DNA of 63,777 bases, counting the filler, from Stramenopiles sp. TOSAG23-6 (lineage: Eukaryota): NCBI GenBank assembly GCA_900128565.1. It is 5 parts of 5 records of this genome, joined end to end, with 100 filler letters (N's around TTAATTAATTAA, not from the genome) between each part and the next. Parts side by side here need not be neighbours in the genome. Positions count along the whole stretch, not along the records: positions 12,818 to 25,512 come from LT636193.1; positions 25,613 to 38,272 come from LT636194.1; positions 38,373 to 51,029 come from LT636195.1; positions 51,130 to 63,777 come from LT636196.1; 1 more part is not named here. The stretch is one strand, 5' to 3'. Every line of letters starts with the position of its first letter. Positions within the stretch are counted from its first letter, which is position 1. A program made the translations under genes and the position numbers. The notes beneath the pieces are model-generated. The model did not search any database. It was not told where the DNA came from and worked only from the letters and a program-made list of their open reading frames with translations. Positions 12,818 through 63,777 of this stretch are shown here, piece after piece.

Positions 12818-12872
12818 TATAAAAATTTTGTACCTAACGATTTTTTTTTTGAAATATTTTTCCAAAATACAT
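12818..12872 (+). mobile_element. Family intron, 3' part (ends AT)
   Basis: TTTTGTACCTAAC...TCCAAAATACAT; the contig starts inside it. Confidence 0.85.
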
Positions 12873-15800
12873 TTGGCCAGAAAGAAAATTTGTGTAATGA
12901 TAAAACAAATGCGGAAGCGTCAGGAAATTCTGGAACAATAGTGACTACTGTACGTCGTGGAAGTGGAACCTTTGGTGATGATAATAGTAGTGATGATTCA
13001 CAAAATAGCGATGACTATTCTTTGCAGTTGAAGCGTGGTACATCTGCTGGTTTTGGTAAAGGTGTCCGTTTTGAAGAAAATGAAGAATGTGATACAATGG
13101 CGAATACAGTTCAAGAGAATCATGTGAAACCAAGAAATAATAATTGGCATTTTAGAGGTTTTGGTAGAGATGACCAATCTAGTGTGTCCGATTTTAGAAA
13201 CGGGAGCAGTGGAGGAGGATCTCATAGCGATGTAGGCGGTGCACGCAGTCGCTTTGGTGCAAACAGTACTGAGAGTGGATACGAATGTGTCGATGTACGT
13301 TTTCATAGATGAATTTCAAATTTTGTTTTTTTGGTAGAAAATTTTATACCTAACAATTTTTTTTTTTTTTTTTGAAATATTTTTCCACAATATATGATCA
13401 GAGTGAATCAATGAGTGATGATTCAGGCAATGGTGAACCTCAAGTAGTGTCTGTTTTTGTACCTGAAGATTGGCTTGAAGGACAACATATCCTAGTGACC
13501 ATGACGGATGGTCATAGATATACTCTCGCTGTTCCTCCAGGAATGTACGTTTTACTTTTTTTTTAATTCCAATTTTTTTTTTTTAGTTTTCGTACGAAAT
13601 TTTGTACCTAACAATTTTTAGTTTTTTTTTTCAAATATTTTTCCAAAACACATTGGTCCAGGAGAATCATTTCAAACAGAACTTCATAGTCACATGCCTG
13701 AACCTGAGGTTGTTTCTGTTCCTGTACCTTTAGACTGGCAAAAAGGGCAACATATACTAATTAGCATGACTGATGGTCGGAGATATACCCTTGCCGTACC
13801 CCCTGGCATGTACGTTTTCATTATGAATTTCAAATTTATTTTTTTTTTAATACGAAATTTTGTACCTAACATTTTTTTTTTTTTTTTGAGTTTTTATTTC
13901 GATACGTTTTCATTATGAATTTCAAATGTATATTTTTTTTCCATAAAAAAATTTCACATCTAACCAATTTAAAAAAAAACAATTTTTTTCACAAAACATT
14001 GGTCCTGGTGAAGTATTTCAAGCTCATTTACGGCCAAATAAAAATGGTGAATATGAAGAAGATAATAGAAGTAGTCAGGAAAATAACGAGGAAGGTACAG
14101 ATAATCCTAACCCTAACCCTAAAGATACGAATGAAAATCGTGCAGATAAATCTATTCAAGATATTGATGATATTGAAATAGACGGTAAACGAGATGATAG
14201 CCATATTGATGATAAAGATAATCATTTGGGGGAGGTAAAACAACAAGGAAATTCGGAAGTGCTTTCAAAGACACCATCCTGTACATTTTCATTTTGATTT
14301 CCAAATTGTTTTTACTAAGAAAATGGAAAATTTTGTACCTAACAAATTTTTTAAATCAAAAAATATATATATATATATTCACAATATATGGTTTCATCCA
14401 ACGCCTGGTAAACGTCGAAACGATGTGAGTCATTTAGATGACATTATACAGCAACGTAATAAAGAAGAGCAGGAAGTATTTTATGTGCGTTTTCATCATG
14501 AATTTCAATTTTGTTTTCGTACAACATTTTGTACCTAACGATTTTTATAACAAAAAAAAAATATTTTTTCACAATATATGCTCAGCAACAGCACAGAAAT
14601 ATATCACGTTTTGATGGAAAGCAAAGTCAGCATTACCCTAACCTAACCGTTAATGCTGGACGGTTTGATGGAAAGCAAAGTCTTGGTTCAAATACATCAA
14701 ATATTGATCAGCCACAACATCACCAATATCAAGATCAGCAAAGATTGCATCAACAGCAACAACACGAAGACCATGTGAACCATCACCGCCAAATTAAATT
14801 ACAAAAGATGCAATTACAGATTGATGATCAACAGAGGCAAATTCGTCGTCAAATTCAAGAACGGAAAGTTTTTGATCAAATTCGACATGAACAGCAACAA
14901 CATGAGGAACAAATTCGATTACAAATTCACATTCGACCTCAAAACATGTATGTTTTATTTTTTTTTTTTACAGAAAAATCGAATTTATTTTTTTCAAAAA
15001 AATTTGTACCTAACAATTTTTTTTAGATTTTTTTTGAAATATTTTTCCAAAATACATGCAGATTTTTTTTGAAATATTTTTCCAAAATACATGCAGCAAC
15101 AAAATATGCATATGAGAATGCAAGTAGATCATCATACCCAGCAGCAGCAAGAGATTGATCGTCGACATCATCAGCAACAAAGTTGTTCTACAGATGATGT
15201 GACGTATGAGAATCGGAAAAACCCTAACCATAAAACGCATGAGAGTCGGAAAAACTCTCGGCGTCGACAAGAAGGAATTAGACGGAGAAGAAGAAGTAGT
15301 AGTGGTAGTAGTGTTAGTCACGTCAAAGTTGCTCCACCAAATTCATTCCCTGTTACCAGTGATGGCGTTGACAGCGATGGAGTAGGTCGTCGTCGTAGTA
15401 GCAGTAATAGTAGTACTTTCGCTACATATCTTCAACAATTACCGTCTGATGATGGAAAACCAACATTCTTCCCTAACCCTAACCCTAATGGAGTTGATGA
15501 CCACAGCCGTCGAACATCAGGAACTCATGAATTAACCTCAATTAGTGGTATTAATAGTAGTGGTGGTATGCTCAGTAGTGTAGATTGTTTTTTCATCATT
15601 CATTTTTTACCTTTTTTTTTTTTTTTTAATATGAAAATTTTGTAACGAACGAGTTTTTGTAAAAAAAAAAATATTTTTAACAATACATGGAGCTAGTAGT
15701 TTTGGCGGTACTCAAACGACCCAGCCGAGACTAAGTCTAGGTGGGCGCTTAAGTATGGGAAACCGTCTTAGTATTGCAGGTCATCTTGGATTACCACCCC

Positions 15801-17202
15801 TTCCATGTACGTTTTAAATATTGAAAATGCATTTTTTTTTTGGTACGAAATTTTGTACCTAATCAAAAACAATAAAAAAAAAATATTCTTTACAATACAT
15901 GTACTCAACCTCGTCATCGACTTCCAGTTCCTGGTGCTACATCAAATTCATCTCAGAGATGCTGGACATATACCCCAAATGGGACTACGTATGTTTTATT
16001 TTTTTTCAATTTCGATTTTTTTTTCGTACGAAATTTTGTACCTAACGAATTTTTTTTGAAATATTTTTCCAAAATACACAAACCATACAGATGAGGCTGC
16101 CGTATTAGCAGCAGAAATGAATACCGCAGAAAGACACTTACAAAAGGCAAATGATGCAAATGCCATTGCGGAAGCTCATCGCCTCGAAGCTCATCGTTTG
16201 ACACAGTTGTGTGCTCATAATTGTGGATATCGTCAACGTGGTCAGTCACCGGAAGCTCAGCATCAAGCTGCATCACTGGCAGTAGATCAAGCTGCTGAAC
16301 ACATGTATATTTTATTTTTTTTTTCAAATTCGATTTTTTTTTCGTACGAAATTTTGTACCTAACGATTTTGTTTTGTGAAATATTTTTCCAAAAGACATG
16401 GAAATTGCACAAACTGCAGCTTTACTCGCTAAATCGCATATGGCTGCAACCGAAGCAGCCATTGGCCGATCCCCCTTACAACCATTATCTTTTCGGAATG
16501 GCAATTCTCATTTACCTACTGCTTTAGGAGTATGTACGTTTTCATATCAATTTTGAATGTAATTTTTTTTTCGTATGAAATTTTGTACCTAACGAAATTT
16601 TTTTCGAAATATTTTTTCATAATCCATGTGTTGATTCGATGAGTCCATCCGGATGCTTCGAGACGCATTCACATCAGAAGAACCCAGTTTCAATATATGG
16701 TTCTGGTGTTACGTATGAAAGTTTATCAAATCAAGCAAGCATTCCAACAACGACGGCAACATTTGGAACATTACCATCACCTCAATATTTTGATACTCAA
16801 GGTAATGCCATCGGTACTTCAAGTCAGCAACATGAGCAACGTAATGCAAGACATCAACTTTTAGAATTTCAGCACCAACAAAAACAAAAACAGAATTATG
16901 AAGAACAAACGCTGTTGCTAAAAATTCAGCAAGAACGAAATCGGCAACAGCAACAGCAACAGCAACAACAGCAACAACCACAACAACAACAACAATATGA
17001 TGGTGGGAAGACTCATCAAAAAGTATATCAGTCTGGTCAAGTTCCTCTTAATGTGAATATACCCCCGGTAGATCTGAGCTTTGATTTCAACCAATTTCCC
17101 CATCAGTTACCTATAGATGGTAGTAACTGGTCGAGGAATGCTAGAACTGGAGTAGGCACTAAATCTCTCTTTTCTACTAATCCCTCAAATGTCAGAAGGT
17201 AA
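12873..17202 (+). CDS. Low-complexity Q/S/D-rich protein of unknown function, 12 exons, 5'-partial
   Basis: Removing 11 family introns at GT..AT/AC boundaries gives one continuous frame to the stop at 17202. Contains two copies of a VSVxVP...VPPGIGPGExF domain. Confidence 0.75.
13295..13395 (+). mobile_element. Family intron GT-AT (101 nt)
   Basis: GAT|GTACG...CAATATAT|GAT; frame restored. Confidence 0.85.
13545..13653 (+). mobile_element. Family intron GT-AT (109 nt)
   Basis: Removal gives VPPGIGPGESF. Confidence 0.9.
13810..13999 (+). mobile_element. Family intron GT-AT, double unit (190 nt)
   Basis: Removal gives VPPGIGPGEVF; two tandem internal units. Confidence 0.85.
14281..14389 (+). 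mobile_element. Family intron GT-AT (109 nt)
   Basis: TCCT|GTACA...CAATATAT|GG; frame restored. Confidence 0.85.
14485..14579 (+). mobile_element. Family intron GT-AT (95 nt), GTGCG start
   Basis: TAT|GTGCG...CAATATAT|GCT. Confidence 0.85.
14948..15092 (+). mobile_element. Family intron GT-AT with duplicated 3' end (145 nt)
   Basis: Only the distal AT restores the Q-rich frame. Confidence 0.75.
15580..15688 (+). mobile_element. Degenerate family intron GT-AT (about 109 nt)
   Basis: Divergent core TTTTGTAACGAAC; ends CAATACAT; 5' boundary less certain. Confidence 0.65.
15807..15900 (+). mobile_element. Family intron GT-AT (94 nt)
   Basis: Consensus motifs; frame restored. Confidence 0.85.
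15989..16079 (+). mobile_element. Family intron GT-AC (91 nt)
   Basis: AC|GTATG...AAAATACAC|AAAC; AC duplicated. Confidence 0.85.
16305..16399 (+). mobile_element. Family intron GT-AT (95 nt)
   Basis: Removal gives AAEHMEIAQ. Confidence 0.85.
16534..16627 (+). mobile_element. Family intron GT-AT (94 nt)
   Basis: Consensus motifs; frame joins ORF 16639..17202. Confidence 0.8.
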
Positions 17203-17358: not shown

Positions 17359-18460
17359 CTAGAGTTGTTTCTGCAAATGTGCATGACTTGAACCAAAATG
17401 ATCTGGTACTTCATGGATATATTTATACAAAAAGGTATGTCCGATATATGCAACGAAACTTCCTATAAAGTACGCGACAAAAGCAACTCCACCGCCTAGA
17501 AATAAAAATTCAAACCCGGTTCGGCACGAAGATTTGGACTGAGTACTTATTGAGTCTATAATGCAAGGCGAGAGATAACTTTTCCAAGATTTGAATTCAT
17601 TTGTTTTCGGATTTTTGAGACAACTTGTAGTGACCCCAAGAAGAAAAAGAACAATTCCCGTAGAAATACAGGCGATTTTGAACATCCCATTTTCACCACA
17701 ATCAGGATCTAAGAGAGGAGCTACAGAATACATAAACAAGGGGATGAATCCAAATACAACAAAGGAGAGAAATGTGATGAATCCATCCTTCCAGGGAGAT
17801 TCATCATCTTCAGGTAGTTGCAGTTGAAGTTTTTCCAACATTAAAGTATTGTGAAAAAATATTTCGAAAAAAAAATCATTAGGTACAAAATTTCGTACGA
17901 GTACGAAAAAAAAATTAAAATTTTGAAATTGCAAACGTACAAAGTTCAAGTAGGATGTCATCGTATTTGGCAATTGTGTGAACGACAACCATAGCTTTGT
18001 CACGAGGCAACCCTTTTTCAACATATGTGTCAACCAATGACTTAATTACAACAGGGCGAGCAACTTGTAAATTTTTTTCTTCTCGACTGAACTCTGATAG
18101 TACGTGTTCCTGATGAGCAATAGAACTCAAAGCATCTCCTACACCCATACCAACGGCGTCAGCTATTATATTAGAAATTCCCAAAATAAGTACAACCTTG
18201 GGACTCAACTGACCACCAGATGCACCAGAAATAATCGCAAATGTGGTGAGAATTCCATCCACACCTCCATAGACCACACTTTTTATCAAGTCACCGTTTT
18301 CACTATGAGCTTCTTCAGAAAACATTGCATCATCATCAGCTGCTGAAGGAATTGTGTGCGAAGAAATTAATTCATCACGATCCAAAGCTTGGTAAGCTGA
18401 ACGAGCACCACTTAAATTACGCACTTTGTCCGCGGCACTAACTGGATTATGAGGAGGCAT
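17359..18460 (-). CDS. VIT1/CCC1 family vacuolar iron transporter, 2 exons
   Basis: IKSVVYGGVDGILTTFAII, NIIADAVGMGVGDALS and ESPWKDGFITFLSFVVFGFIPL motifs. Confidence 0.9.
17844..17940 (-). mobile_element. Family intron GT-TT (97 nt)
   Basis: CTTT|GTACG...CAATACTT|TAATG gives LLELLMLEKL; TT duplicated. Confidence 0.88.
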
Positions 18461-18837: not shown

Positions 18838-20363
18838 ATGGAACGAAACATTGTTCAATCTACACAAAACTCTGAATTTGTTCTTGACCGCAGTATATTT
18901 TCCAAATCTATTCCAGTGTCTGCCTTACGCATACGTCCAGAGCAATGCAATGTTTTTACAAAGAAATTGAGGCGTATTATATTTAAACGGCGAAAAGTTC
19001 GACCGATAGTTTCGGATCCTTCTGACTCGACACACAAGCTACTTCTTTTAAGTGACACCATTGGAAACCACAATGGAAACCACAATGATGGTGATACAAA
19101 TGATGGTGATACGTCTACACTCTCGGAAGATATTTCACCTGAAATAATGGATTTTATTACAAGTCAAGGTGCTTCATTTGTTCCATATTCTATTACTATG
19201 GGCTATGAACATCTTACTGCAAGCCAAGTGTTAGCTGAAGTTCTACCAGTAGGAGTCCAGGTGCCATCATCTTTTGAGACTATAGGTCATATTGCCCACG
19301 TGAACCTTCTTGAAGAACAATTGCCATTTAAGAAAATTATTGGTGAAGTATTTTTAGAAAAGAATTCTCCTCGTATTCGAACAGTTGTAAATAAAGTTGG
19401 AACAATTCAAACGAAATTTCGGACTTTTCCAATGGAGATTTTGGCTGGTGAAGATGACACAATAGTTGAGTGCATCGAAGGTGGAGCTCGATTCAAACTT
19501 GACTATCGATCTGTATACTGGAATTCTCGGTTACAAATGGAGCATATGCGTAGAGTGGAGCTCATTGCTGGTCCTCTGATTAAGAAGAAACGCGGTAAAA
19601 ATAAAAATAAAAATTTTGAAAATAGTTCAAAAATTGAAATAAAAAAGGATGAAACGGTGAATAGAATTCTATCATCGAAACCTTTAGTCATTGCGGATAT
19701 GATGTGTGGAATTGGACCATTTGCTATACCTCTAGCAATGCGTGATTGTGTGGTACACGCGAATGACTTAAACCCAGAGTCGTATAAATGTACATTTTCA
19801 TTTCAATTTCGAATTTAGTTTTTTTTTGGTTTTCGTACGAAATTCTGTACCTAACAAATTTTACAAAAAAAAAATATTTTTTCACAATACATATCTCAAA
19901 GAGAATTGTGCCTTGAATAAAGTATCTTCGTTGATAACAACGTATAATTTAGATGCACGTGTTTTCATAAAAACATTGTTGAAACAGTCCATTACATTTG
20001 ATCATGTCATTATGAATTTACCTGCTTTATCACTGGAATTTATAGATGTCTTTTCTGGACAGGTTTGTGCTGATTGGGAGAAAATGCCAAAGTTACATTG
20101 TTATTGTTTTTCTAGTGCATCCACAGTAACCGAAAGACGCAATGATGTTATTAAGAGAGCTGAGATATCCTTAGGTCGTCCTTTAGATTCAGCAAATGTT
20201 CAAACAAAAGAGGTAAGAGATGTCGCACCTAATAAGATAATGTATGTTTTATTTTTTTTCAATTTCTAATTTATTTTTCGTACGAAATTTTGTATTGTGT
20301 GTATCATTCACACTTCCTTCTGTATCACTAGAATCTTCTAAAAAACGGATTCGTAGTATATAA
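18838..20363 (+). CDS. TRM5: tRNA (guanine-37-N1) methyltransferase, 3 exons
   Basis: PSSFETIGHIAHVNL, VYWNSRLQMEH, DMMCGIGPFAIP, ANDLNPES, HVIMNLP and VRDVAPNK..CVSF motifs. Confidence 0.93.
19790..19892 (+). mobile_element. Family intron GT-AT (103 nt)
   Basis: Removal gives NPESYKYLKENCALNKV. Confidence 0.92.
20242..20293 (+). mobile_element. 3'-truncated family intron
   Basis: GTATGTTTT...CGTACGAAATTTTGT is followed directly by exon LCVSFTLP; CCTAAC and the 3' module are missing. Confidence 0.6.
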
Positions 20364-20769: not shown

Positions 20770-21679
20770 TTATACATCTTCCCCACGCATTTTAGCTTCT
20801 TCCTGAGACTTCAATTTTTGTTCTTCAATTTTTGCTTCTTGTGCTTCTTGTGCTTTCGCTTTATTACCCATGTATTGTGTAAATGAAAGAAAAAATAATT
20901 AGGAACGAAATTTTTTTTACGAAAGAAAAAAAAAATCGAAATTCGTGAAATATTCACTTTTTGACAACATACAAAACTACCAATACACCAACACCAGCAA
21001 AACCGACCCACTGCATTCCTAAACTGAAATACATCCAACCATCACCAAACGCCTCATAAAGAGCAAGAGTAGCAACAAAAAAACCAATATAAAAAGCATA
21101 GAGACACACGAAAATTGTTATATATTGTGAAAAAATATTGTTTTTCTTTAAAGTTTTTTTGTTAGGTATGAAATTTCGTACGAAAAAACAAATTGAAAAT
21201 TTTGAAATTGAAAACGTACAATATAATTGCCCAGTCTCTTGGATCATTACCGAATAGACATGGCTTGTAACCAACTTTTTCAACAATCCAACCTGTTTTT
21301 CGCGGTACAATACCTTTTAAATCTGGTGGAAGCTGACTTACTTTATTGCCAAGTTCGTCTCTAAGTAGTTCACGCCCTAAGTCCCTCAGTATTTGGGACA
21401 TTTGACTACCTGGAAGAGCCATGTCTTGTGCAGCAGCTTCACGGAATGCTTTCCTATACAACTGTAAATTTAGGATTACAACATAAAATATGAAGATAAT
21501 TAGTCAAATTATAGATGGTACAGATATTTTCAAATGAGAACTTGTGTCTGGAAAGGTGAACTTACTCGTTGCTGGCGATATTCCTCTGTGTCCAAGAAAT
21601 TACTTTTTGCCACAGAAGGCTTCCTTGGCTTCTTTTCCTCCAATTTCACACCAGCGGTGGTATTATTAATAGCATTCAT
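20770..21679 (-). CDS. Small membrane protein with two predicted TM segments, 4 exons
   Basis: One canonical intron (21462..21565) and two family introns give a continuous frame with two hydrophobic segments. Confidence 0.7.
20870..20972 (-). mobile_element. Family intron GT-AT (103 nt)
   Basis: GTATGTTG...TTCGTTCCTAAT...CACAATACAT; 5' site somewhat ambiguous. Confidence 0.65.
21120..21219 (-). mobile_element. Family intron GT-AT (100 nt)
   Basis: Removal gives DWAIILTIFVCLY. Confidence 0.85.
21462..21565 (-). other. Canonical GT-AG intron (104 nt)
   Basis: CGA|GTAAGT...CCTAAATTTACAG|TTG; no family motifs. Confidence 0.85.
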
Positions 21680-22080: not shown

Positions 22081-25000
22081 ATGAATCAAGAAAATCTACG
22101 TCGAGTAGATAGTATGGTTGAAAGTATTTCAGTAGTTGATGCTTCTTCTTGCTCTATACCAGGCCAGCCTCCAAAACATTGCATTGAACCTGTGGATCAA
22201 TCTGCTTTAAAGTTGGCTAATGCGGAATGGAAGAAAAGCTGTAATAGTATTTTGAAGAAGAAGTCTTTAGACTTAAAAGACATGCGTATAAAATTGGCAA
22301 AAAAAATTCGGTTTCGTCGAGAATCGCGTTTATTGAAGAGACTAAAACGTGACGAAAATCTTGCTGCCACTCATGGTCGATTTCTGCGAGCAATGAGTTT
22401 GTCTTCTACTGCATCCAATTATTCATATAAAAATTCTCGTAATAGTATTTCTGGTTCTCGCAAAGGCAGACCCCGTGGGAATGTTGCTTCCGTACCAACA
22501 TCCTTACCTAATGGTCGATCATTAGAAGGAAAAGGGGTTAGTAGTATAGTCAATACATCTAGTTCATTTGAAGGTACTACACGTATGGATATCGATGGTA
22601 GTACTGCTGTAAAAGAAAAAGAAGTTTCATCTCCATCCTTCCCCACAATGAGTGATGAATATAGACCACTAGAAAGAGTTGTGAGTGATCCTAATCCGTA
22701 TAACTCATTACTCACTTCTTTACTTTTAAATAGTTTACGACAAAAACCTGTCAGCAGGCGACGTTTAAAAGCATTAGCCATCCAAGCATTACATAAGATT
22801 ATCGGAGAAAGAAAGAATTCAGGGAATAAGACTCCGAGGCCTTCCATTAAAGTTGCTCGTTTTGAATCAGCAAATTCGATGAAGGAACCTATTAAATTAG
22901 TACCAGCAACATCAATCACTCGAAGAGGACCCGTATTGACATCAATAAGTTCTCATGTAAATTGTACAAATAATGATATTAATAATAGTTCTGAAAAATC
23001 ATCTGAAAAGCAATCTTTGAACGGCTCTGATACTCTTCATGCTTCTATTTCTGAAAAATCATCTGAAAAGCAATCTTTGAACAGTTCTGTTCCTCTTCAT
23101 GCTTCTGTTTCGGAAAAATCATCTGAAAAGCAACCTTTGAATAGTTCTGAAATAGATGATTGTAATAAGCGTTACTCTAATAGCTCTAATATCTCCCGGT
23201 TACCTGGGAGACCATTAACTCCAACTCCTGAGAAGTCTCCACAAAGAATGATTGAGAAAGAACCCGATGAACTAGATTTAAATGAGATGAGTAATACTAC
23301 AGAAAAAGAATTAGCTACATCTATTGTACAACAATCAAATGATACAAACAAACACGAAACAGCAGAGACAACAGAAAAAGAATTAGCTACATCTATTGTA
23401 CAACAATCAAATGATACAAACAAAACAGAAAATATTTTAAAGCCATTTGCAGCACCGGCAAATTCCTTCAAAGTTTTGACTGCAGATCTTCCTGCTGAAG
23501 GCATTGACCTTGTGAGAAAGATTGACGTTTGGTGTGATACATTTTGTGCTATTAGTCTTATAAATACTGGTGCTGGTTTAGCAGGGTATGGTGCAGGAGG
23601 TTCACGAAATAAACGGAAATGGTCAAGATTAGACCAAATGGTTTACGAATTGACACGTGTTGGTGAAATGGAAAAATTAGAAAAGTTAGCGGGTAAAACC
23701 CAGGCGAATTCAGCATATGAATGGCTTTGGCAATATGCGGAAGAATGGAATACCCCATGGGAAGCTTTACTTATGGCAGAACGTGGTCATCTTCATCAGA
23801 TCCAACGGAAATTCGGTACACAAATTTTTAAAGCAGCTCACAAATGGGTTTGGGCAAGAGATGATTTTTGGCATCCAACTCCATATGTTCAATTAAAGGC
23901 ACAACAAGGAAATTTCAAAAGTATTTGTGGAAGGTATCACCCTGATTTAAAAGTAGATAAATCAGCGTACGCGTGGGTTTGGCAAAGAAGCTTGAGTTGG
24001 CATGCACATCTAATTCATTATCGTAGATTAGCAGGTCATCCTGATGTGCATGAATTAATTGACGATGAAATTTGTTCTTTGGATAGAAAACAAGATTGTC
24101 TTTTGGCTAATATTGATAAACATGTCGAGTCTCTTTTGCATTTGCGACGAACTCGTCAAATGTTTATGGCACGTGAAGAAGCTTTAGTTCGTGATTTATG
24201 CAAAGAATCAAAAATTGATCTCGGAATTCCAAATGAACCAATCAATGCAGGAGAACCAATTCGACTTCGTAATCTTCGATCTAAGCCACGCGGACACGTG
24301 GACCCTTTGATACACAATCCAAAGAAAAGGAAAAGATTGAGTGATGATGCAAGATCTGCTCGAGATATATCTGATTCCAATGGTCGTACTGGTCCGTTCG
24401 GTTTTCTTCCTAATCGAGGAAATTACCGTAAAACGGTTTCGATTTGTGATTATAAAATTCCAGACATTATGACAGTTACCCCTTCTGGGACAACTACAAA
24501 GACTCGAACAAGAAGTAATAGTGAAAACACATTAAATAGTTTAGATATAGATGGAGACAATACTGTTGAATCAGATTTGTGGTTAGAAATTAAATCAAAA
24601 CCTGTTCTATGGCAGGATATTAGTGCAAAATTTGAAGTTGTAAAAACGAAACGAGATGTACGTTTTCATGATTTTTTTTTTCAATTTTTTTTTTTTTTTG
24701 GTAAAAAAATTTTGTACCTAACTAAAAAAATAAAAAAATATATATTTCTTCAAACTACATAAACCTCTCGGACATCATGAAGAAGCCATTGAAGGAGATT
24801 TCGCTTTGATCGGTGCTAAAAAACCTAAACGAAAATCAGGTTCAAAGTCTAGTGATACGGATGTATGTTTTAATTTTTTTAAATTCGTAGTTTTTTTTTC
24901 ATACGAAATTTTGTACCTAACAAATTTTTTAGAAGTTTTTTTGAAATATTTTTCCAAAATACATAATGATAGAAAATTTCGTGGTCGGCGATCTTGGAAA

Positions 25001-25367
25001 AAACAAAAACATAGTGAAAGTCCGATAGATTCAATAGACGAAATTTCTGATGAAGATTCAGATTCTGGTTTGTCATATAAAGAGAAAAAAGCAAAACAGG
25101 CTGCGATTCGCAAAGTGTACGTCCCTAAATGTAGAATAATCGATATGTATGTTTTACTTTTTTTTTTTTTTTTATGAATTTTCTTTTTTTTTTTTTTTTT
25201 TATTTTTTTCGTACGGAATTTCGTACCTAACGATATTTTACATTTTTTTTTTGTTCACAATATATATTTTACTCGGCTCGCCTTGGTTAGTAAAGCATGG
25301 TGCAACTTGTTATGAAGCAGCTGTACGAAATGTAAAATCTTGGATACATGATTTACAAGACATTTAG
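22081..25367 (+). CDS. Large protein of unknown function, 4 exons
   Basis: Long ORF extended across three family introns; internal repeats (SEKSSEKQSLN x3, TTEKELATSIVQQSNDTNK x2). Confidence 0.7.
24658..24760 (+). mobile_element. Family intron GT-AT (103 nt)
   Basis: GAT|GTACG...CTACAT|AAA. Confidence 0.85.
24863..24964 (+). mobile_element. Family intron GT-AT (102 nt)
   Basis: GAT|GTATG...AAAATACAT|AAT. Confidence 0.85.
25147..25267 (+). mobile_element. Family intron GT-AT (3' end at 25265 or 25267)
   Basis: Consensus motifs; an AT run makes the end ambiguous. Confidence 0.7.
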
Positions 25368-25612: not shown

Positions 25613-25667
25613 GTACGAAATTTTGTACCTAACGATTTTTTTTTTTAAATATTTTTCCAAAATACAT
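25613..25667 (+). mobile_element. Family intron, 3' part (ends AT)
   Basis: The contig starts inside the core GTACGAAATTTTGTACCTAAC. Confidence 0.85.
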
Positions 25668-27329
25668 ATAACTACGGAAGATTCAGAGAATGCCAAGAAG
25701 GATGAAGCACGCCGTAGTGGTTATAAAGCGAAGAAAGAAGCAAAACGCAGGGAAGAAGCCAATAATGATTTGTCATGGAATTCTCTTTTTTTACGTAGTG
25801 ACACTGTCATGAATAAACTTGCGTCTCAATTAGGTGTAAAGAAATCTGACATTCTTGTATGTTTTCATCATTCATTGTCTACCTACATTTTTTTTTTTCT
25901 TAGAAAATTTTGTACCTAACGATGTTTTTTGTTTTTTTTTGTTTTTTTTTTGTTTTTTTTTGTTCTTGAATTGTATAAAAAAAATGTACCTAACGATGTT
26001 TTTTTGTTTTTGAATTGTTGTACAATATATGATCGAGAAGGTAAAAGTAGTGGTAGTATGGCAGTACATGCAGCATTAGCTGAAACGCATGTGTTAGAAC
26101 AAACAAAGGCTGCTTTAATTGAATCTGGTGTTAATCTTGATGTATTGACCCAGGCTGCTCGTGGTAATAAGTCATCACAGAAAGATGATAAAACAAATAG
26201 TGATCAAGTCAATGCGGGTGCTTCTGGGGCACAAACTCAAATGAAGCGAAGTAAAGTTGTGCTTCTAGCAAAGAATCTTCCTGATAATACAACATCTACG
26301 GAATTAAGTCGATTATTCTCAAAGTTTGGAGATATTGCCCGCTTAGTTTTTCCTCCTCCTCACGTCATTGCTTTGGTTGAGTTTGATTCATCTGCAGCAG
26401 CTAAACGAGCTTTCTCTAGTTTAGCATATAAACGATTTAAACATGCACCATTATATTTAGAATGGGCTCCACGTGGTATTTTCACAACCGCTACGAATGA
26501 GGAAACTAGAGCATTGGCTTTTGATTCAAGTGTAAAAAGATTAGATAATGAAAATGAAAAAAATACAGAAAAAAGTAAAGCAATTCACCAAGATAATGAT
26601 AATGATGAATGTGTTACACTCTTTGCAAAAAATCTAAACTTTGAAACGAATAGTGTTGGTCTTTTAGCAGCAGCCAAAAATTTAGGTGTACGTGGTATCA
26701 GGACAGCTACCGTTGCAACGAAACCAGATCCTAAGAATAAAAACGATCCAAAGAAACGAAATCTGCGCTTAAGTATGGGCTTTGGTTTTATTGAATTTAA
26801 AACTAGAGAAAAAGCAATGAATGCATTAAAGAAACATCAAGGAATGATTGTTGATGGGCATGCATTAGTCTTAAAATTATCAGATCGTAAAGGTACATTT
26901 TTACGTAATAAAAACTCACAAAATTCACAGAAACGAAAACGTGATTCAACTCAAAAGAAAACAACATCTACAAAAATATCTGTTAAAAATGTTGCATTTG
27001 AAGCTTCAAGACAAGAAATTCGTGAATTATTTGGAAGTTTTGGAACACTAAAGAATGTTCGCTTGCCACGAAAGTTTGATGGTGGTCATCGAGGTTTTGC
27101 TTTTGTTGAGTATTTAGCTCGTCAAGATGCTCGTCGAGCTTTTGAGCAATTGAGTTCAACACATTTTTATGGACGACGTCTTGTAGTTGATTGGGCTGAT
27201 GCAGCTGAAAGTATTGAAGAATTAAGAGCAAAGGCAAATCGTGATGTTAGTGCTATTACTCATTCTAGGGATAAAGTTATGAACAAAGCAATGGACTTTG
27301 GGGAAGATGACAATAAGAGTGAATTTTAG
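25668..27329 (+). CDS. RBM19: Multiple-RRM ribosome biogenesis protein (RBM19/Mrd1), 5'-partial
   Basis: SWNSLFL, AVHAALAETHV, AYKRFKHAPLYLEWAP, LSMGFGFIEF, RLPRKFDGGHRGFAFVEY and STHFYGRRLVVDWA motifs. Confidence 0.92.
25857..26030 (+). mobile_element. Family intron GT-AT with two branch cores (174 nt)
   Basis: Removal gives KSDILDREG; TGTACCTAACGATGTT occurs twice. Confidence 0.85.
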
Positions 27330-27447: not shown

Positions 27448-29138
27448 TCATAAAGTGAAGTTTTCATATTTTAAAAATTTTCTTTTTGGCCAATGTTTGA
27501 ATATTTTCTCGTGAAATTGAAATTTCACTTTTTGATATTCATTTGTATCTTTTATCTTACCATCAGTCTCATCGTACAATCGACCATGCTTTACATCATG
27601 ATATGAATTATACATCGTCTTTGATTTTTCTATTAATAATATTTTACTCTCTTTATCTTGGAAATTCTTATTTACTAATTTAATAAATTCTGTTGTACAC
27701 GAAATAGGACACTTTTTACATAATTCTATAAATCGAGCAAACATTTTTGATTTACATAAGATAGATTGGCATTGACGGGGAGGATTCTTAGTATTTTTTT
27801 TAGTTGTACCTGACTTTAGACCTGTTTTAGATAGCAAAACTTCGGTATTATTGTGACCTCGGCTCCATGATATTGAGAATCCACAAGGTACAATTTTAGG
27901 TACACTTTTAGATACAATTTTAGGTACAATTTTATCTGTTGATTCTGCTGATGTTGTTTTAGATATTGTTTTACTATTTTGTTCAATTTGATATTGAGAA
28001 AATTTAAAAGATTTTGTCGCGTGAAATAACCTTGGTACGCAATAATCATTATTGCTGTTTGTGACAATCCTACCAATGATGGCTCGAAACATAGCAGCTT
28101 CGTTCCATAGTTCAGAGACACAAATTGAAGAAAGAAAAATATTTTGACTTTGTAGCAAGTTACTTAGTAAAGCACCCTGGAGGCCAAGAACAGTCCACCG
28201 AGCTAATTTATCACATGTATTGAAAAACATATGTCAAGTTCGAAATCCGTTAGCTACGAAATTTCGTACGAAAAAAAAAATACATGTGAAATTCATTATA
28301 AAAACGTACTACACGTTAAAGAAGAACTTTGAGAACCTCTACCAGGTTTTGTTCTTAGAACACCTAATGTATGATATTGTGAACCAGGTAACATTGGATC
28401 GGGTATTTCTCCTGCTACAGGTTTTCCTCCTGTTCTGTGAAAGTCTTTTTTGTTTAATGTATTATTATTATTATTATTATTAATACCATCAGAAGTAGAC
28501 ATGTTTATGGATACAATCTTATTCAATTCAGTGAGTCGTTTTTTAGTGTTTTTTGTATGACTACTACTTGTTGGCCTTTTTTTGGTGTTTTTAGTGTCAT
28601 CCAATGGAAAGATACACGCATCGCCGCAGGGTGCTTGACTAATATACATATGGAATTTAATACCATCGCGTAGCTTAATATCATTGGAAATTGAATGCTT
28701 CTTTTTTGTATCAAATTTTGTACCTAACGAATTTCGAATTTGCCTTCTATTAGAAATATCGAAATTATTACTTTTACAACTCACAGAAGGCCTCAAAACA
28801 AATATATCAGATTCATTTTTTTGACTAAATAGCTTTTCAAGTTCATCTTCTAGAAATACAATAAAACGACGACGACAAATTACCTCTGCGTGAGAATCAT
28901 GCACCGCAACTCCGTTTGCATGCATCCCAGAAGATCCAACACACTTTGTTCCTGTTGCGAGAACAATCACTTCTAGCAAAGGATTTTGAGTACCAACATT
29001 CTTTTCTAATAAAATTGAAGCTAGCACTGACCATTCGCGTGGTCCACACTTGCCAGTTTTAGGTAAAGTATCATACTTCTGATGAGAAAGTGTTGCACAA
29101 AGGTTAGCAAATGTGGACACAGTACTTGATTCTGACAT
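27448..29138 (-). CDS. ADAT1: tRNA adenosine deaminase (ADAT1/Tad1-like; ADAR-type deaminase domain, no dsRBD seen), 2 exons
   Basis: LATGTKC, HDSHAEV, YISQAPCGDA, LRTKPGRG and TCSDKLARWTVLGLQGALL motifs. Confidence 0.88.
28215..28309 (-). mobile_element. Family intron GT-AT (95 nt)
   Basis: TGTA|GTACG...CAATACAT|GTGAT restores CSDK. Confidence 0.92.
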
Positions 29139-35977: not shown

Positions 35978-38219
35978 ATGCCTAGGCATGGACGTGGAAA
36001 AGGTTCATCTAGTCGAGGGAATCAAAAGGATAGGTCACAGAAAAGTCAAGGGACTGATGTTCATGCAAAGCAAACGAATAATGAAAAAAATGGCAAAAGA
36101 TCACTCCGCAAAAATAAAAATAATAAGGGTCATCGTAACAACAACAAGTATTCGAAACAACACCACAGTGGTAGCGGTAGGGAAAAGTTCACAGGTTACC
36201 GAAAGCATATGGAGAAATCGGATGTTGATATAGGTTTGGAAAATGGAAAATTCTATGAAGGTACAATTCGTATTAACAAAAAGAAAAGAACTGAAGCTTA
36301 TGTTTCAGTTCAAGGGATACCGTTTGATGTGTTCATTGATGGTGACACTGCTCGCAACCGTGCTTTAGAAGGTGATATTGTATGCATTGAACTCCTACCT
36401 AGATCAATATGGCAATCTCGTAATGCTAATTTTTGTAGAAATAAAAATGAAACTAAAGCGAATGAAAAATTTATAGATCCTGTGAACTGCCCTACAGTAG
36501 AACCAAAGTTTAAGATTGAAACTGATTTGGATGCCGTCAATACAAAAGACAATAATAATTTATGGCCCATGCAATACACTCAACCAACACCAGCTGAAAA
36601 TATAGAATCAACTGGAAACAATCCATTTGATCATTTAGCCTCAACAAAACTTACTGAGGATGGTGTATTTTGTAAAGAAAATAATTTTCAACCTTCAGGA
36701 CAAGTCATTGCAATTCGTGAAAAACGTCACCGCAACGATCTTCTCGGTCACTTACGCTTCTCTAATAATGATATGAATGGAGCATTACCTACACGCGTAT
36801 CGTATATTTTGTTTTCCCCTCGTGATCCTCGATACCCATTTGTAAAAATCCCACGACAGTTTCTTCCTGAAAAAGCTATTTCGGATCCACGTTCTGCTTC
36901 ACTTGATCTTTGGAGTGTTTGTCTTGATCGTGTATGGTTTCATCATGAATTTTAGATTTCAATTTTTTTTTCGTACGAAATTTCGTACCTAACGAATTTG
37001 AAATTTTTGAAATATTTTTTCACTATACATGATTGGAACGCCAAGGAAAAATCTCCAACGGGTAAAGTTAGAATTTCGATTGGCCAGGCTGGTGAAATAG
37101 CAACAGAAACAGCTGCTCTATTACGTGAGAATGGATGTGATCATGGCTCATTTCCTTCTGCTGTGTTGAATGAAATTGCTATAGAAGTTGGAGATTCATG
37201 GTCAATGTACGTTTTTCATTTGGATTTTTTACGTAATTTTTTTTTCATAGAAAATTCTGTACCTAACGATTTTTTTTTTTTACTAAAAAAAAAAAACAAA
37301 CAACAATATTTTTTCACTATACATCCCTCCTGATGAATTTCTTAATCGTCGAGATTATCGCAAGACACGGATTTTTTCAATCGATCCAGCAACAGCAAAA
37401 GATTTAGATGATGCTTTACATATCACACCTTGTAAGTTATCCGATGGATCAGATGGTTTCGAAATTGGTGTCCACATTGCTGATGTTTCACATTTTGTAA
37501 GACCCGGTACCGCACTTGATGCAGAAGCGCAGCGAAGATCTACAACTGTATATTTGAATCAGTTTTGTATACCTATGCTCCCACCTCGTTTATGTGAGCA
37601 GTTATGTTCCTTAAATCCTGGTGAAGATCGTTTAGCGTATTCTGCAGTATGGAAAATGAAAGCTGATGGTGCTTTAGATAAATCGCCGTGTTGGTTTGGT
37701 CGCACTGTCATTCATACTGCATGTAAGTTAGACTATGGCACTGCTCAATTAATAATTACTGGAGAGATTTCAGCAGATGATGTGGATACACTAGCAAAGC
37801 ATGGTGAAGGTAATACTGGTTTATATTCTACCATAGAATCATTGAATGAAGTTTGGTCTCCTGAGAGACGACCAATAGATTTGAATGTTGCTGCCGCTGC
37901 TGCAAAGGATGTAATTAATCTACATAAAGTGGCATGTATGTTTTATTTTTTTTCAAATTCGAATTCTTTTTTATACGAAATTTTGTACCTAACAAATTTT
38001 AGTTTTTTTTCTTGAAATATTTTTCCAAAATACATCTTCTCGTCGTATTCGAAGGTTTACTGCAGGTGCTTTAGCTTTGCATCAACCAAAGTTATGTTTT
38101 AAATTAGATGGAGATGGAAACCCAGTATCAGTATTTACATATCCTTTAAAGGACTCCAATAGATTAGTAGAAGAATATATGCTCTTAGCTAATTATCTTG
38201 TAGCTCAACATTTATTAAT
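35978..38219 (+). CDS. DIS3L2: DIS3-like exonuclease 2 (RNase II/RNB family), 3'-partial, at least 4 exons
   Basis: RNRALEGD, IGQAGEI, SIDPATAKDLDDAL, GVHIADVSHFV and LVEEYMLLAN motifs; no PIN domain. Confidence 0.9.
36932..37030 (+). mobile_element. Family intron GT-AT (99 nt)
   Basis: Removal gives CLDRDWNAK. Confidence 0.88.
37207..37324 (+). mobile_element. Family intron GT-AT (118 nt)
   Basis: Removal gives WSIPPDEFLNRRDYR. Confidence 0.92.
37936..38035 (+). mobile_element. Family intron GT-AT (100 nt)
   Basis: Removal gives LHKVASSRRIRRFTAGAL. Confidence 0.92.
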
Positions 38220-54500: not shown

Positions 54501-57500
54501 GGGTTAATTTAGAGCAACAAATTAAAGATGATACATTTAAACAAGAAGCTAATTTAGAGGAACAAGTTCAAGAACATACATTTACACAAGAAGCTAATTC
54601 AGAGGAACAAATTAAAGAGCATGCATTTACACAAGGAGCTAATTTAGAGGAACAAATTAAAGAGCATACATTTACACAAGAAGCTAATGTAGAGGAACAA
54701 AATCAAGAGCATACATTTACACAAGAAGCTAATTTAGAGGAACAAATTAAAGATGATACGTTTACACAAGAAGCTAATTTAGAGGAACAAATTAAAGAGC
54801 ATATATTCACACAAGAAGCTAATTTAGAGGAGCAAAATCAAGAGCACACATTTACACAAGAAGCTAATTTAGAGGAACAAATTAAAGATGATACATTTAC
54901 ACAAGAAGCTAATTTAGAGGAACAAAATCAAGAGCATACATTTACACAAGAAGCTAATTTAGAGGAACAAATTAAAGATGATACGTTTACACAAGAAGCT
55001 AATTTAGAGGAGCAAAATCAAGAGCATACATTTACACAAGAAGCTAATGCAGAGGAACAAATTAAAGATGATACATTTACACAAGAAATTACACCGGATC
55101 AAGTTGAAGATCATACGTTTCCACACGGAACAATTGAGATGCCACAAAATTCCTTAGAAAATACCGATGTCGAAAAGGTGGATATTATAGCTGATATAAA
55201 CACCCATTTTAATACTCTGCTTTGTACGTTTGATGTTCAAAGCATCGGAAGTGTCACAATAGAAGAATATAATGCTGCATTGTCAGATATACAAATCACT
55301 TTCGATTTTTATTTAACGGACGATGAAGTAAAAACAATTATTAGCGCTACAAATATTGATAATAGCGGAAAAATAAAAATCCACAATGCATTTGAACAAG
55401 CATGGAGTATTATTCAACCTATAATTGAAAAAGATCTTTATCCAATGAACAAAATGGAACATCATCAAACGAATGTGAAACAAAAAATGGAGTTACCCGA
55501 GATAGCAACAATAAATAGAAAATGGCGAGGTTGTTATTCCTCAGTCAATGAAGGATTTTTCCTTATTCATTCATTACAGGCTGGATCTGCAGTTGCAGTA
55601 CATGTACGTTTTCATCTTAAATTTCAATTTTGTTTTTGTATCAAATTTTATACCTAATGCATTTCAAATGTAACATACCTTTTCATAATACATGCAGTAT
55701 GTGTAAACGAATCTATCAGCATGTCTATAACAAAAGCAGTTGATACGAATGATCCCTCATCTATAGAACTTGAAAAATTAAGCATTATGTTGCTTGAAAC
55801 TCTCTTTTCCAACAAAAGACAAATCCAAGAAGCTGCAGCAGCAGAAAAATCTGAAGAACTGAATGCGATACAAAATATGAAAGATGCCGAAGAGGCTGAA
55901 CGCGATGCGTTGAAACAATTAGAAGTGATATTAGCTGCTGTTGAATCTGAAAATGAAATTACATTTGAGAATGATAATGCTGATATAGTTGCAAGTTTGA
56001 CAACCATGGTAAATGATGCAACCGAAAACATGCGAAAAGTTAACAATAAAACGAAAGACGAAATAGACAAAGCATTCAAAGACAAGGATCGGCAAATAGC
56101 TGAACACAAAAGTATGCTATTGGAAGTTCAGCAAGCTGACGCAAAGGTGAAAGAAGCTTTGCGTGAAGCAACCTTATTAGAAAAAGAGTTTAATATTGCA
56201 AAAGAGAAGTCCCAAATAGATTTGGAAAAAAATGAATCAGACCTATACATAGAAGACATTGATGAAACACAAGCCGAAGAAGTATTAGACGGAGCATTAA
56301 ATGAAGAAGTAAACATAAAATATATTTATGAAACAGAAGCCGAAGAAGTCTTTGACGAAGTACCAAACGAAGAAATAGACACAACGCGTATTGGTGAAAT
56401 AGAATCAGTACAGTTATTAGATAGAACATCAAATGAAGTCTGCAAGAAATTAAAGTTCAATGCACAATGGCGTGGATCTTACCGATGTCGTGGGAACAGA
56501 TCTTACTTAGTCTGTATCGCACAAATGGCCAAAATGATTCAAATACGCGCGATATGTGTTAATAATTCTATAGAAGTAAGTATATGCAAAACAATTGAAA
56601 GTACAGAACCATTATCAAGTATATCTTTGAAAGATATTGCAACGAAATATGTTGACACATTAACAAATACCTCAAAAGATACTCAACTTGTACCTACAAT
56701 AAAACATTTAAGTGGATCTGCAGATGTAGACATAGCTGTCTCAAATTTGTCTGCAACTTGGCGAGGTTGTCACTTGTTTGGAAGTGAACTATACCTTATT
56801 GTTGCCACACAAAATGATGATACTGTTTCACTGCGTATTGTTAATGTTAGTAACTCGGCTGCGATTAGCATACTTAAAAATCTTGAAAACAATAATACAT
56901 TATCGATTGAATCATTAAAAGATATTGCTTGTGCAGCTACATACAACTACTCGTCTGAAGTTACACCACGCTCATTAAAAATTAGAGATATATCTTCTTC
57001 ATCATCATCATGGCGTGGCATTTGCTTATCACGTCAAAATGAAATCTATGCATGTACCGTCACTAAAAACGAATGTAAAATTCGAGTTACTTGTATTTGT
57101 ATACGTAATTCTACAACGCTAATTACATCAAAAATACATAAGAGTAAACAATATCTGTCGGCTACATCACTTATGAAAATGGCAATGAAAGTAATTCGAT
57201 CTCCACCAAAAGCACCACGGCTCTTACAAAATGTTCCAAAATACCGAAACAAGACATCACAGGAAGCGAAGAAGAAGGCGATATTATATCAATCAAAATT
57301 GAAAGCACTCGCAGGATTGCAAAAACTAAAAGAGAAAGATAAAGCGGTTGAAGCAGCGCGTAAAGCCGAATCAGATTTGAAAGAAAAAATGGAACAATTG
57401 AAAAAGAAAGAACTTGCTATGGAAAAGGCACGCGAGGAAACGGAACGTCGAAAGCAACATCAGATCGAACAACAGCGACTTGCCTTGTATGAGGCACAGA

Positions 57501-62865: not shown

Positions 62866-63717
62866 TTATGCATTTCCTAAACCTTTACCCGTAGCATGAA
62901 AGTGAAGTACACGCATAATGTCATACATTCTTGGTAATTCATCTGGTGAAAGTTCCAGTTTGAGTAAAACTAGTCTCCGTCCTGAACCTCCAGTTGAATC
63001 TTGAAATTGTACAACAAATTGATTTAATTTAACTTTGTTTTGGAAAAATATTTCAAAAAAAAAATTAATTTTTTTTTTGTTAGGTACAAAATTTCGTACG
63101 AAAANCNAAAAAAAAAAAAACTNAAAAAANAANTTGAAAAAAAAATAAAACATACCTTTGTTTTGGAAATGCACAATATCCGAAAATGGGATTTCTTTTA
63201 TGATCGATCGAGTGTGCATATCAACACATTTTGCACCAGTTGGACAAACAGCCATAAAAATCGTCTCTGGTAGTCCAAGCCGACGACACGAAATATGTGG
63301 TTTTGCAATGAATACTGTCATACCATATAATCCAAATTTAGAACAACACATAATATAGTCTCGACGATGTTCCATCCAATCATTATGTGTATTTCCATGT
63401 TTATCTGTAAGACCTTTGGTTTTTGTAATGTACTGCATACACACGCCATCTAAAGAATCTTCATCACAAAAACGAGAAGGGAGGTATTTTTGTAAATTTT
63501 TTAATGTTAATACCGAAGTAGGATCCACATAAGGGCTTCCATTACGTGATTCAGTTAACATTTGAAGCACTGCAATTTCGTACAATTCTGAACGACGGAT
63601 GGGCTGCCTGTTTGTATATCTACCTGAGATTATATCTGTCACGGCTTGGTGAAACATTAAATGTTCTGATGCGGGATCATCAACAGAGACTGGAATAAAA
63701 TATTTTACACGGTAGAC
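62866..63717 (-). CDS. FERM-domain C-terminus (possibly a MyTH4-FERM protein), 5'-partial
   Basis: LMFHQAVTDIISGRY, KYLP, LYGMTVF and EIPFSDI motifs. Confidence 0.75.
   Translation of the reverse strand, partial: VYRVKYFIPVSVDDPASEHLMFHQAVTDIISGRYTNRQPIRRSELYEIAVLQMLTESRNGSPYVDPTSVLTLKNLQKYLPSRFCDEDSLDGVCMQYITKTKGLTDKHGNTHNDWMEHRRDYIMCCSKFGLYGMTVFIAKPHISCRRLGLPETIFMAVCPTGAKCVDMHTRSIIKEIPFSDIVHFQNKGMFYFFFXXFFXFFFFXXFVRNFVPNKKKINFFFEIFFQNKVKLNQFVVQFQDSTGGSGRRLVLLKLELSPDELPRMYDIMRVLHFHATGKGLGNA
63033..63155 (-). mobile_element. Family intron ending AG (123 nt) with a 14-bp direct repeat
   Basis: TTTCCAAAACAAAG|GTATG...TTTCCAAAACAAAG|TT. Confidence 0.8.
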
Positions 63718-63777
63718 ATGTTTTGTGAAAAAATATTTCAAAAAAAAAACTTAAATTTGTTAGGTACAAAATTTCGT
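63718..63777 (-). mobile_element. Family intron, 3' part (ends AT)
   Basis: ACGAAATTTTGTACCTAAC...CACAAAACAT; the window ends inside it. Confidence 0.85.

Follow-up and report, generated by a model that had tools for sequence, protein, structure and literature searches.

Introner-like inserts with GT 5' ends and mostly AT 3' ends in genes of Stramenopiles sp. TOSAG23-6

Genes of the window and the insert family

The analyzed DNA, herein referred to as the window, is a stretch of 63,777 nucleotides from Stramenopiles sp. TOSAG23-6 (GCA_900128565.1). It comprises five contigs of ~12.7 kb (positions 1-12717, 12818-25512, 25613-38272, 38373-51029, and 51130-63777) separated by N-linkers. The subject of this study is a family of short inserts that interrupt genes in contigs 2-5 (LT636193.1, LT636194.1, LT636195.1, and LT636196.1), and the analysis of these elements refers to those four contigs. 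Ordinary eukaryotic genes were found there by Pfam searches, encoding TRM5/TYW2, VIT1, an RRM protein, an ADAT1-like deaminase, and a DIS3L2-like RNB exonuclease. Additionally, these searches identified a CPS small chain with GATase, an N-myristoyltransferase (NMT), and ERGIC/ERV, WW/EF-hand/ankyrin, and FERM proteins. A fragment of IFT122 was identified by a search against solved structures.

The 25-nt core of the family, with up to 3 mismatches allowed, had 20 matches in the window and none in 100 shuffles. An nhmmer profile built from 10 copies had 37 matches with E < 0.05, every one of them in contigs 2-5; no copies were found in contig 1 (1-12717). The curated set includes 29 full-length copies (90-190 nt, most of them 90-123) and six truncated ones, all but that at 20242 lying at contig ends (Table 1). 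In total, the family spans at least 12 genes on four contigs. Contig ends thus fall inside element copies, and the open reading frame (ORF) of TRM5 enters the half-copy at 20242-20294 and stops inside it.

Three blocks are kept in the alignment even in diverged copies: a 5' block GTAYGTTTT, a core block TTTTCGTACGAAATTTTGTACCTAAC, the first part of which is formed by a 12-nt palindrome, and a 3' block AATATTTTTYCAMAATAY, followed by two further bases. Each copy also includes a U-rich stretch. The young subfamily, herein referred to as subfamily A, has 9 copies whose pairwise identities have a median of 0.84 and reach 0.92 at most, and the median for the 13 copies of the older subfamily is 0.73. 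GT was found at 31 of the 32 visible 5' ends, 24 of them with GTAYG (GTACG 13, GTATG 11, GTACA 4, and GTATA, GTGCG, and a degenerate GTTTT once each); the sole other 5' end is GA at 38457. The 32 visible 3' ends, belonging to the 29 full-length copies and to the partial copies at 12872, 25667, and 63718, are AT in 27 cases, TT in 2, and AC, CT, and AG in one case each. The AG expected at the end of a U2-type intron is therefore present in a single copy.

Counts out of 28 refer to the usable loci, which are the full-length copies without the chimeric join at 38822-38924 (see below); counts out of 29 include that copy. The branch motif CTAAC or CTAAT was found in 25 of these copies, the others having CGAAC (28309 and 15587) or CTTAC (46558). 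The motif is 24-79 nt away from the 3' end (median ~38). All 28 copies are in the sense orientation relative to the flanking ORF (binomial P=7e-9), as are the five partial copies at contig ends. The original prediction for this DNA, made from the sequence alone, had reported about 35 related inserts on four contigs, the three-module architecture, sense orientation throughout, and the same tally of 3' ends. All of these observations were reproduced.

Every intron that could be inferred in the four contigs belongs to this family, no systematic search for other introns having been made. Intergenic DNA of the window contains short core fragments only, at 17272-17303 (minus strand) and 49602-49639 (plus strand), and no intact copy. 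A further core-like fragment (28687-28758, plus strand) lies antisense inside the minus-strand ADAT1-like ORF, where it falls in a loop immediately ahead of the PCGD deaminase motif. This fragment may represent either an antisense copy that was exonised or a piece of an unrecognised GTGAGT..AG intron. In the DNA run X3 (see below), the depth of bins with the element reached ~11,000 compared with 5-8 in unique bins, which hints at very many copies, this depth not being usable as a copy number. The exact 25-mer had no loci in public metagenome contigs. A gapped pattern of core and 3' module had two loci there, both rejected as chance matches (an ordinary GT-AG intron and coding sequence), and none in viral contigs.

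Table 1. Copies of the insert family and telomere-like motifs in the window. Ends are the first and last bases of each copy; the next column gives the dinucleotide before the copy.
Feature	Coordinates	Strand	Ends	Before	Remarks
3' part of copy	12818..12872	+	..AT		Cut by contig start; nhmmer E=1e-9; + strand ORF next
Insert	13295..13395	+	GTACG..AT	AT	Phase 0
Insert, young subfamily A	13545..13653	+	GTACG..AT	AT	Internal AG unused
Composite insert	13810..13999	+	GTACG..AT	AT	Internal partial duplication
Insert	14281..14389	+	GTACA..AT	CT (mismatch)	
Insert	14485..14579	+	GTGCG..AT	AT	
Insert, subfamily A	14948..15092	+			Tandem duplication of 3' module and 4 exon bases at 15058-15092
Old copy	15587..15688	+	..AT		Degenerate 5' end; frame needs start 15586 (TG) or 15580 (GTAGAT); present in DNA contig X3 record 9
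Insert	15807..15900	+	GTACG..AT	AT	
Insert, subfamily A	15989..16079	+	GTATG..AC	AC	
Insert, subfamily A	16305..16399	+	GTATA..AT	AT	AG 4 nt before end unused
Insert	16534..16627	+	GTACG..AT	AT	
VIT1 insert	17844..17940	-	GTACG..TT	TT	Missing from related DNA haplotype
TRM5/TYW2 insert	19790..19892	+	GTACA..AT	AT	RNA contig X10 record 4 ends at 19789
Truncated 5' half-copy	20242..20294	+			At 3' end of TRM5 ORF; breaks off after core
Old insert	20870..20972	-	GTATG..AT	TT (mismatch)	
Insert	21120..21219	-	GTACG..AT	TT	RNA-level removal seen; AG 26 nt before end skipped
Insert	24658..24760	+	GTACG..AT	AT	
Insert, subfamily A	24863..24964	+	GTATG..AT	AT	Two internal AGs unused
Insert	25147..25265	+	GTATG..AT	AT	Followed by 7-codon last exon
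3' part of copy	25613..25667	+	..AT		Cut by contig start
Composite insert, RRM-protein gene	25857..26030	+	GTATG..AT	TT (mismatch)	
ADAT1-like deaminase insert	28215..28309	-	GTACG..AT	TA (mismatch)	Splits TCSDKLARW codons
DIS3L2-like insert	36932..37030	+	GTATG..AT	GT (mismatch)	Junction gap-free in homologue alignment
DIS3L2-like insert	37207..37324	+	GTACG..AT	AT	Homologue alignment
DIS3L2-like insert, subfamily A	37936..38035	+	GTATG..AT	AT	Homologue alignment
Fourth DIS3L2 insert, 5' part	38220..38272	+	GTACA..	AT	Cut by contig end
5' part of copy	38373..38457	-	GAATG..	AT	After IFT122 exon; cut by contig end
Chimeric-join copy	38822..38924	-			CPS/GATase upstream, IFT122 downstream; out of frame; excluded from counts
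CPS small-chain/GATase insert, subfamily A	39000..39092	-	GTATG..CT	CT	Removal restores GGPT/DTAFLF
Insert	45093..45197	-	GTACG..AT	AC (mismatch)	
Insert	46463..46558	-	GTACA..TT	TT	96 nt, open in frame
Sole insert of >3000-codon WW/EF-hand/ankyrin gene	55604..55693	+	GTACG..AT	AT	
FERM-domain gene insert, subfamily A	63033..63155	-	GTATG..AG	AG	
3' part of copy	63718..63777	-	..AT		Cut by contig end
Telomere-like AACCCTAACCCTA sites	14103-14121, 15220-15232, 15475-15487, 20632-20729, 25365-25421, 35845-35869, 42897-42909, 49819-49831, 62183-62195, 62808-62820				

Removal of the inserts from transcripts

Removal of each insert from its GT to its terminal dinucleotide (GT..NN) keeps the frame of the longest flanking ORFs directly at 25 of the 28 loci. 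The inserts at 15989 and 25147 are in frame once the phases are chained by hand (a short exon and a 7-codon last exon, respectively), and the old copy at 15587 fits only with one of the shifted 5' sites given in Table 1. Reading through the insert meets a stop codon at 23/28 loci. The DIS3L2 product spliced in silico aligned with 6 homologues without a gap at 3 junctions. In TRM5, position 74 of the Pfam profile is reached on both flanks of the insert, and in VIT1 the two flanks cover profile positions 1-115 and 113-214. The conserved motifs that the original prediction had named as restored by precise removal (NPESYKYLKEN, LELLMLEKL, WSIPPDEF, LHKVASSRR, GGPT/DTAFLF, and TCSDKLARW) are all readable in the sequence. 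Owing to the 35-nt tandem duplication at 15058-15092, one copy has two candidate 3' ends, of which only the distal AT keeps the frame.

Splicing to the first AG located at least 7 nt after the branch A would break the frame at 18 of the 28 loci, produce in-frame indels at 9, and fall on the identical site at 1, which equals the chance expectation. An unused AG at this distance from the branch A was found in 6/28 copies. The seventh AG-containing tail is that at 63155, where the AG is the terminal acceptor itself.

Six metatranscriptome runs match small parts of contig 2, and three of them, together with an independent DNA run (X3), were compared with the window. In the poly(A) RNA contig X10 record 6, position 21119 is joined to 21220, with flanks of 148 and 113 nt, and exactly the 100-nt minus-strand insert is gone (..attatatT/GTACG...CAATATAT/aacaa.., slashes marking the borders). 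An AAG 16 nt past the branch A of this insert is skipped in the RNA. RNA-level removal is seen at this one clean junction, a thin basis. Other RNA contigs stop exactly at the exon ends 19789 and 17941, with a few further letters beyond. Unspliced intron parts were found in the RNA contigs X7 record 18 and X9 record 23; thus, the inserts are transcribed, DNA carry-over being possible. A protein-database search for spliced products from the same organism found no match close enough to show the junctions. For the DIS3L2 exon, the best identity among the matches listed was 55-66%, with one partial match of 70% over 48% of the query, and the small gene at 21165-21503 had no match in the protein database.

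Two loci restrict the register of the borders. The flanks at 21219 permit only GT..AT or TG..TA and exclude AT..AC, and TCSDKLARW at 28309 permits only GT..AT, TA..TG, or AC..GT; GT..AT alone is shared by the two loci. Borders placed two bases upstream would convert the inserts into AT..AC introns of the U12 type or of the U2-type AT-AC class. At the 15 loci with AT on both sides, such a shift gives an identical mRNA and the registers are indistinguishable, and TACCTAAC is presumably loosely similar to the U12 branch consensus. Nevertheless, the RNA contig at 21219, with 0 mismatches in its upstream piece, does not fit the 2-nt shift, and the shifted 5' dinucleotide would be AT at only 15/29 loci. 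U12-type introns have the 5' end [AG]TATCCTT and a branch site TCCTTAAC located 10-20 nt from the 3' end. In contrast, the inserts have GTAYGTTTT, and their branch motif lies too far upstream for this type. Taken together, these data make the AT..AC reading highly improbable.

Nearly all known introns require a terminal AG. Here, the 3' cut always falls two bases past the conserved ..YCAMAATAY module, whichever dinucleotide stands there. Judging from the 5' GTAYGT and the CTAAC motif, the agent of removal would most likely be a U2-type spliceosome with a second step that does not depend on AG. The 3' cut would be set some 35-45 nt past the branch A, just beyond the 3' module, with nearer AGs bypassed, and AT would be a preferred ending rather than merely a preferred target. 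Cutting at the first YAT past the branch was dismissed on visual inspection, as many copies have an earlier TAT within the conserved GAAATATTT module. The original prediction, namely introns that combine a GT donor and a CTAAC-type branch site with an acceptor lacking AG, is supported by frame, homology, the failure of the AG rule, and the RNA junction.

A tentative extension of this reading, possible but somewhat doubtful, is that the major spliceosome of this lineage no longer reads the 3' dinucleotide, cutting by the position of the branch and 3' module with a mild preference for AT, and that the family forms nearly the whole intron complement. If so, this would be a natural example of exon ligation that does without AG in introns with a canonical 5' site and branch site, and one introner family could enter coding sequence at almost any 2-bp target.

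Removal without a spliceosome, by pairing of the intron ends, endonuclease cutting, and ligation, as for the nonconventional introns of euglenids and hemistasiids, was also considered. As in those introns, for which an origin from miniature inverted-repeat transposable elements is suspected, the inserts have non-canonical borders and short border repeats (PMC12621601; PMC11282704). Moreover, as read from the sequences, exon AU together with GUAU could pair with AUACAU at the AT/AT loci of subfamily A. The strong pairing of the ends described for the euglenid and hemistasiid introns is absent here, and GTAYGT is present, whereas those introns lack complementarity to U1 (PMC12621601; PMC11282704). 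RNAalifold found 0 consensus pairs in 20 copies, and the terminal helix GTA..TAC has no covariation, so that an RNA structure joining the intron ends was rejected. Loci with non-palindromic repeats are unable to form the extra pairs. Both the 5' GTAYGT and the CTAAC motif, 24-79 nt before the 3' end, are classic signals of spliceosomal introns and have been kept in old copies. This route is accordingly considered very unlikely.

Probable target-site duplication, mobility, and alternative origins

The terminal dinucleotide of the inserts follows the exon bases before them, locus by locus. The last exon base equals the last intron base at 27/29 loci (permuted mean 23.4, P=0.003), and the second-to-last bases are equal at 21/29 (permuted mean 16.7, P=0.004). 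The same permutation test gave no signal at positions -3 to -6 and +1 to +4. All five ends other than AT (AC, TT, CT, TT, and AG) are identical to their own upstream dinucleotide. The variable last two bases of the intron are therefore the signature of a 2-bp target-site duplication. Neither this feature nor the mobility of the inserts was noticed in the original prediction. Because the non-AT loci repeat their own dinucleotide, a Helitron-like mode in which the element enters between A and T with no duplication was rejected. At the sole AG-ending copy (63033-63155), a 14-nt direct repeat, TTTCCAAAACAAAG, lies across the exon end and the intron end, far above the usual 2 bp, and the region includes several Ns.

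Spread at the RNA level could produce a similar picture. An excised intron would be reverse-spliced into another transcript, reverse-transcribed, and recombined into the genome, as in the model described for ascomycete introners (PMC9860276), with neither transposase nor true duplication; AT before GT would then be a site preference. Strict sense orientation, the almost complete lack of intact copies between the genes of the window, the weakness of the terminal inverted repeat, the lack of a transposase in the window, and the 9 loci where the intron ends in AT and the exon end differs all agree with this model. However, a reverse-spliced intron would carry fixed last bases, whereas 5/5 non-AT ends match the dinucleotide of their locus at both -1 and -2, and repeats are perfect in 8/8 copies of the young subfamily. 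Moreover, few intergenic copies are expected anyway in a gene-dense genome. Reverse splicing is thus regarded as unlikely.

One locus is also found without its insert. Run X3 behaves as DNA, with depth in 30/30 bins, intergenic ones included. Its contig record 10 (2054 nt), which extends over three genes and both strands, is missing exactly the VIT1 insert (17844-17940) and differs from the window at 15/835 bases in one piece (~1.8%). Other inserts are retained in the same run (records 8, 9, and 12), and VIT1 is the only locus at which such polymorphism was observed. DNA lacking an insert had been named in advance as a finding that would refute the original prediction. Such DNA exists, but on a diverged haplotype, and the empty VIT1 site more plausibly reflects a strain-level insertion polymorphism than excision from DNA.

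Excision at the DNA level, similar to that of the internal eliminated sequences of ciliates, would account for short AT-rich inserts, for a 2-bp direct repeat of which one copy is left, and for a DNA contig exactly lacking one insert. In contrast, it would not predict the sense bias of 28/28 copies or their splice-type signals. The empty allele belongs to another strain, as indicated by the 15/835 differences, other inserts persist in run X3, and unspliced forms occur in RNA libraries (X7 record 18 and X9 record 23, DNA carry-over being possible). Furthermore, the organism groups with stramenopiles rather than ciliates in the NMT tree (see below). DNA excision is hence extremely unlikely.

One copy requires a different interpretation. 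At 38822-38924 (minus strand), the CPS small-chain/GATase gene is joined to IFT122 (human residues 514-592) through an element copy, with the frame broken. This join is an assembly chimera through the repeat rather than one intron of one gene. In this respect, the original prediction is corrected. A single-gene CPS junction at 38924 was rejected in the search against solved structures, where the downstream exon matched IFT122.

The reading considered probable here is that the inserts are a non-autonomous mobile element of the introner kind, that their 3' intron end arises from a 2-bp target-site duplication, and that they are removed at the RNA level, likely by the spliceosome. Each copy would supply its own 5' splice site GTAYGTTTT, a 22-nt core ending in the CTAAC branch motif, the U-rich stretch, and the 3' module AATATTTTTYCAMAATAY. 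Insertion, presumably by a transposition enzyme, would duplicate two target bases, most often AT, and the downstream duplicate would become the last two bases of the intron. Since the intron would end with that duplicate, GT..NN removal gives back the original mRNA exactly. Duplications of 2 bp are typical of Tc1/mariner elements (TA) and some CMC elements; the termini of this element presumably match neither.

Several points weigh against this reading. X10 record 6 contains the single clean spliced RNA junction among the junctions listed, most of which are jumps between repeat copies. An Rfam search at gathering thresholds, covering the window only, gave 0 matches and thus no small nuclear RNA. 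No transposase or autonomous copy was found in the window; general Pfam searches showed no transposase domain in the ORFs scanned. The ends form only a weak inverted repeat, GTA..TAC plus A/T, with 77.5% of cells paired and covariation not above that in shuffles. Assembly through the repeat is unreliable at one copy, and the mismatched copies at 14281, 15587, 20972, 25857, and 45197 could also be chimeric. The 2-bp repeat is broken at 9/29 loci, the intron always ending in AT, and a pure duplication model needs a later change to account for the mismatched loci.

At these nine exceptions, the exon dinucleotide is TT (4), GT (2), CT (1), TA (1), or AC (1). Three were verified as real, at 21219 by RNA, at 28309 by the motif, and at 36932 by the alignment, and one other is the chimera at 38924. 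The opposite case, an exon ending in AT before an intron with a different end, was found at 0/29 loci. Repeats are perfect in 8/8 copies of young subfamily A, 3 of them with non-AT ends, and in 12/20 older copies, 2 with non-AT ends, trends with age that fit the reading but are not significant (Fisher P=0.06 for repeats and P=0.12 for non-AT ends). These small numbers suggest that the element may insert into varied 2-bp targets and that selection may then keep or create AT at the intron end. Two tandem protein repeats at 13396-14010 (..GQHIL..MTDG.RYTLAVPPG/GPGE..) carry the inserts at 13545 and 13810 at the same codon position, and this protein module was probably duplicated after the insertion.

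Relation to known introners and other features of the window

Introners that bring their own 5' site and obtain the 3' site from a duplication have been described in Chrysochromulina, with 4 bp duplicated (PMC9860276), and in Micromonas pusilla, where a 3-nt duplication gives the AG of IE1 (PMC11282704). The inserts described here share with both a short, non-autonomous sense element found in many genes, unchanged mRNA length, and strain polymorphism, as well as a GT derived from the element and last intron bases that are the downstream duplicate. Unlike those introners, which have duplications of 3-4 bp and a canonical AG, the present family has 2 bp, with AT at 27/32 ends and AG at one. As the duplication supplies AT and rarely AG, splicing must work without AG.

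The tunicate Fritillaria borealis has transposon-derived AG/AC (18%) and AG/AT (16%) introns of many families (PMC13326754; PMC11282704). Their 3' AC or AT lies in a YAY triplet that repeats the exonic triplet before the 5' site, and a modified U2-type spliceosome is presumed to remove them (PMC13326754; PMC11282704); the U2AF subunits are duplicated and diverged (PMC13326754). Similar to these YAY ends, the last three bases here are CAT, TAT, or CAC in 23/28 non-chimeric full-length copies. In contrast to the AG 5' ends and many families of Fritillaria, the protist studied here has GTAYGT and a clear CTAAC in a single family.

The introner elements of Amoebophrya have hairpin-forming inverted repeats of 8-20 nt, direct repeats of 3-5 nt, and no consistent terminal dinucleotides, and U1 small nuclear RNA is reported not to have been found in that organism (PMC7789003). 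Both cases involve a marine protist whose repeated introns are flanked by direct repeats, have ends other than GT-AG, and have borders that the repeats make ambiguous. Unlike in Amoebophrya, there is no consensus fold here, the repeat is of 2 nt, and the 5' end is of the U1 type.

A 2025 survey of introners limited 3' sites to AG or AC unless RNA showed otherwise (PMC12130899), a rule by which this family could be missed. In the literature searched, no paper combining "introner" and "GT-AT" was found; the species tables of PMC9860276 and PMC12130899 might include the organism. The papers listed on MAST and uncultured stramenopiles made no mention of introners, and PMC5778133 mentions introns only in its methods. 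Closely analogous systems, missed in the original prediction, have been published. Introners as such are known; what is new here is that a 5' half canonical throughout is combined with an end other than AG that stems from the duplication.

Introners provide the favored account of bursts of intron gain, and the described cases need GT and AG from the element or the duplication. If the present reading is confirmed, the second step of splicing can become independent of AG in a free-living protist and not just in Fritillaria. An introner freed from AG would also be freed from a constraint on its target site, which helps to explain how one family fills the genes. Gene finders and introner surveys that assume AG or AC would then miss such introns and mis-annotate the genomes of abundant uncultured marine protists. 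The system offers a clean test of how the spliceosome chooses a 3' site when nearer AGs exist.

The stramenopile-like nature of the host, stated in the original prediction, is reasonable but not settled. The best protein-database match of the NMT was at 77%, the next at 71%, and those at 60-63% included stramenopiles and dinoflagellates. In a FastTree phylogeny of 24 NMT sequences, a midpoint-rooted tree of a single gene with no support values, the organism adjoins MAST-4 and Incisomonas.

Contig 1 differs from the other contigs in GC content (~44% vs. ~35% in contigs 2-5). Its termini carry perfect inverted repeats of ~3.3 kb, and it contains long repetitive ORFs that are rich in Ser/Gly and lack Pfam matches. 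This contig may be an amplification artefact or may belong to another replicon or organism.

Telomere-like AACCCTAACCCTA motifs occur at interstitial positions (Table 1), with 17 matches in the window vs. 0 in shuffles. Some of them are in frame within coding sequence (PNPNP), and others are located in intergenic tandem repeats or between divergent genes. At 15219, one AACCCT unit shows polymorphism in run X3.

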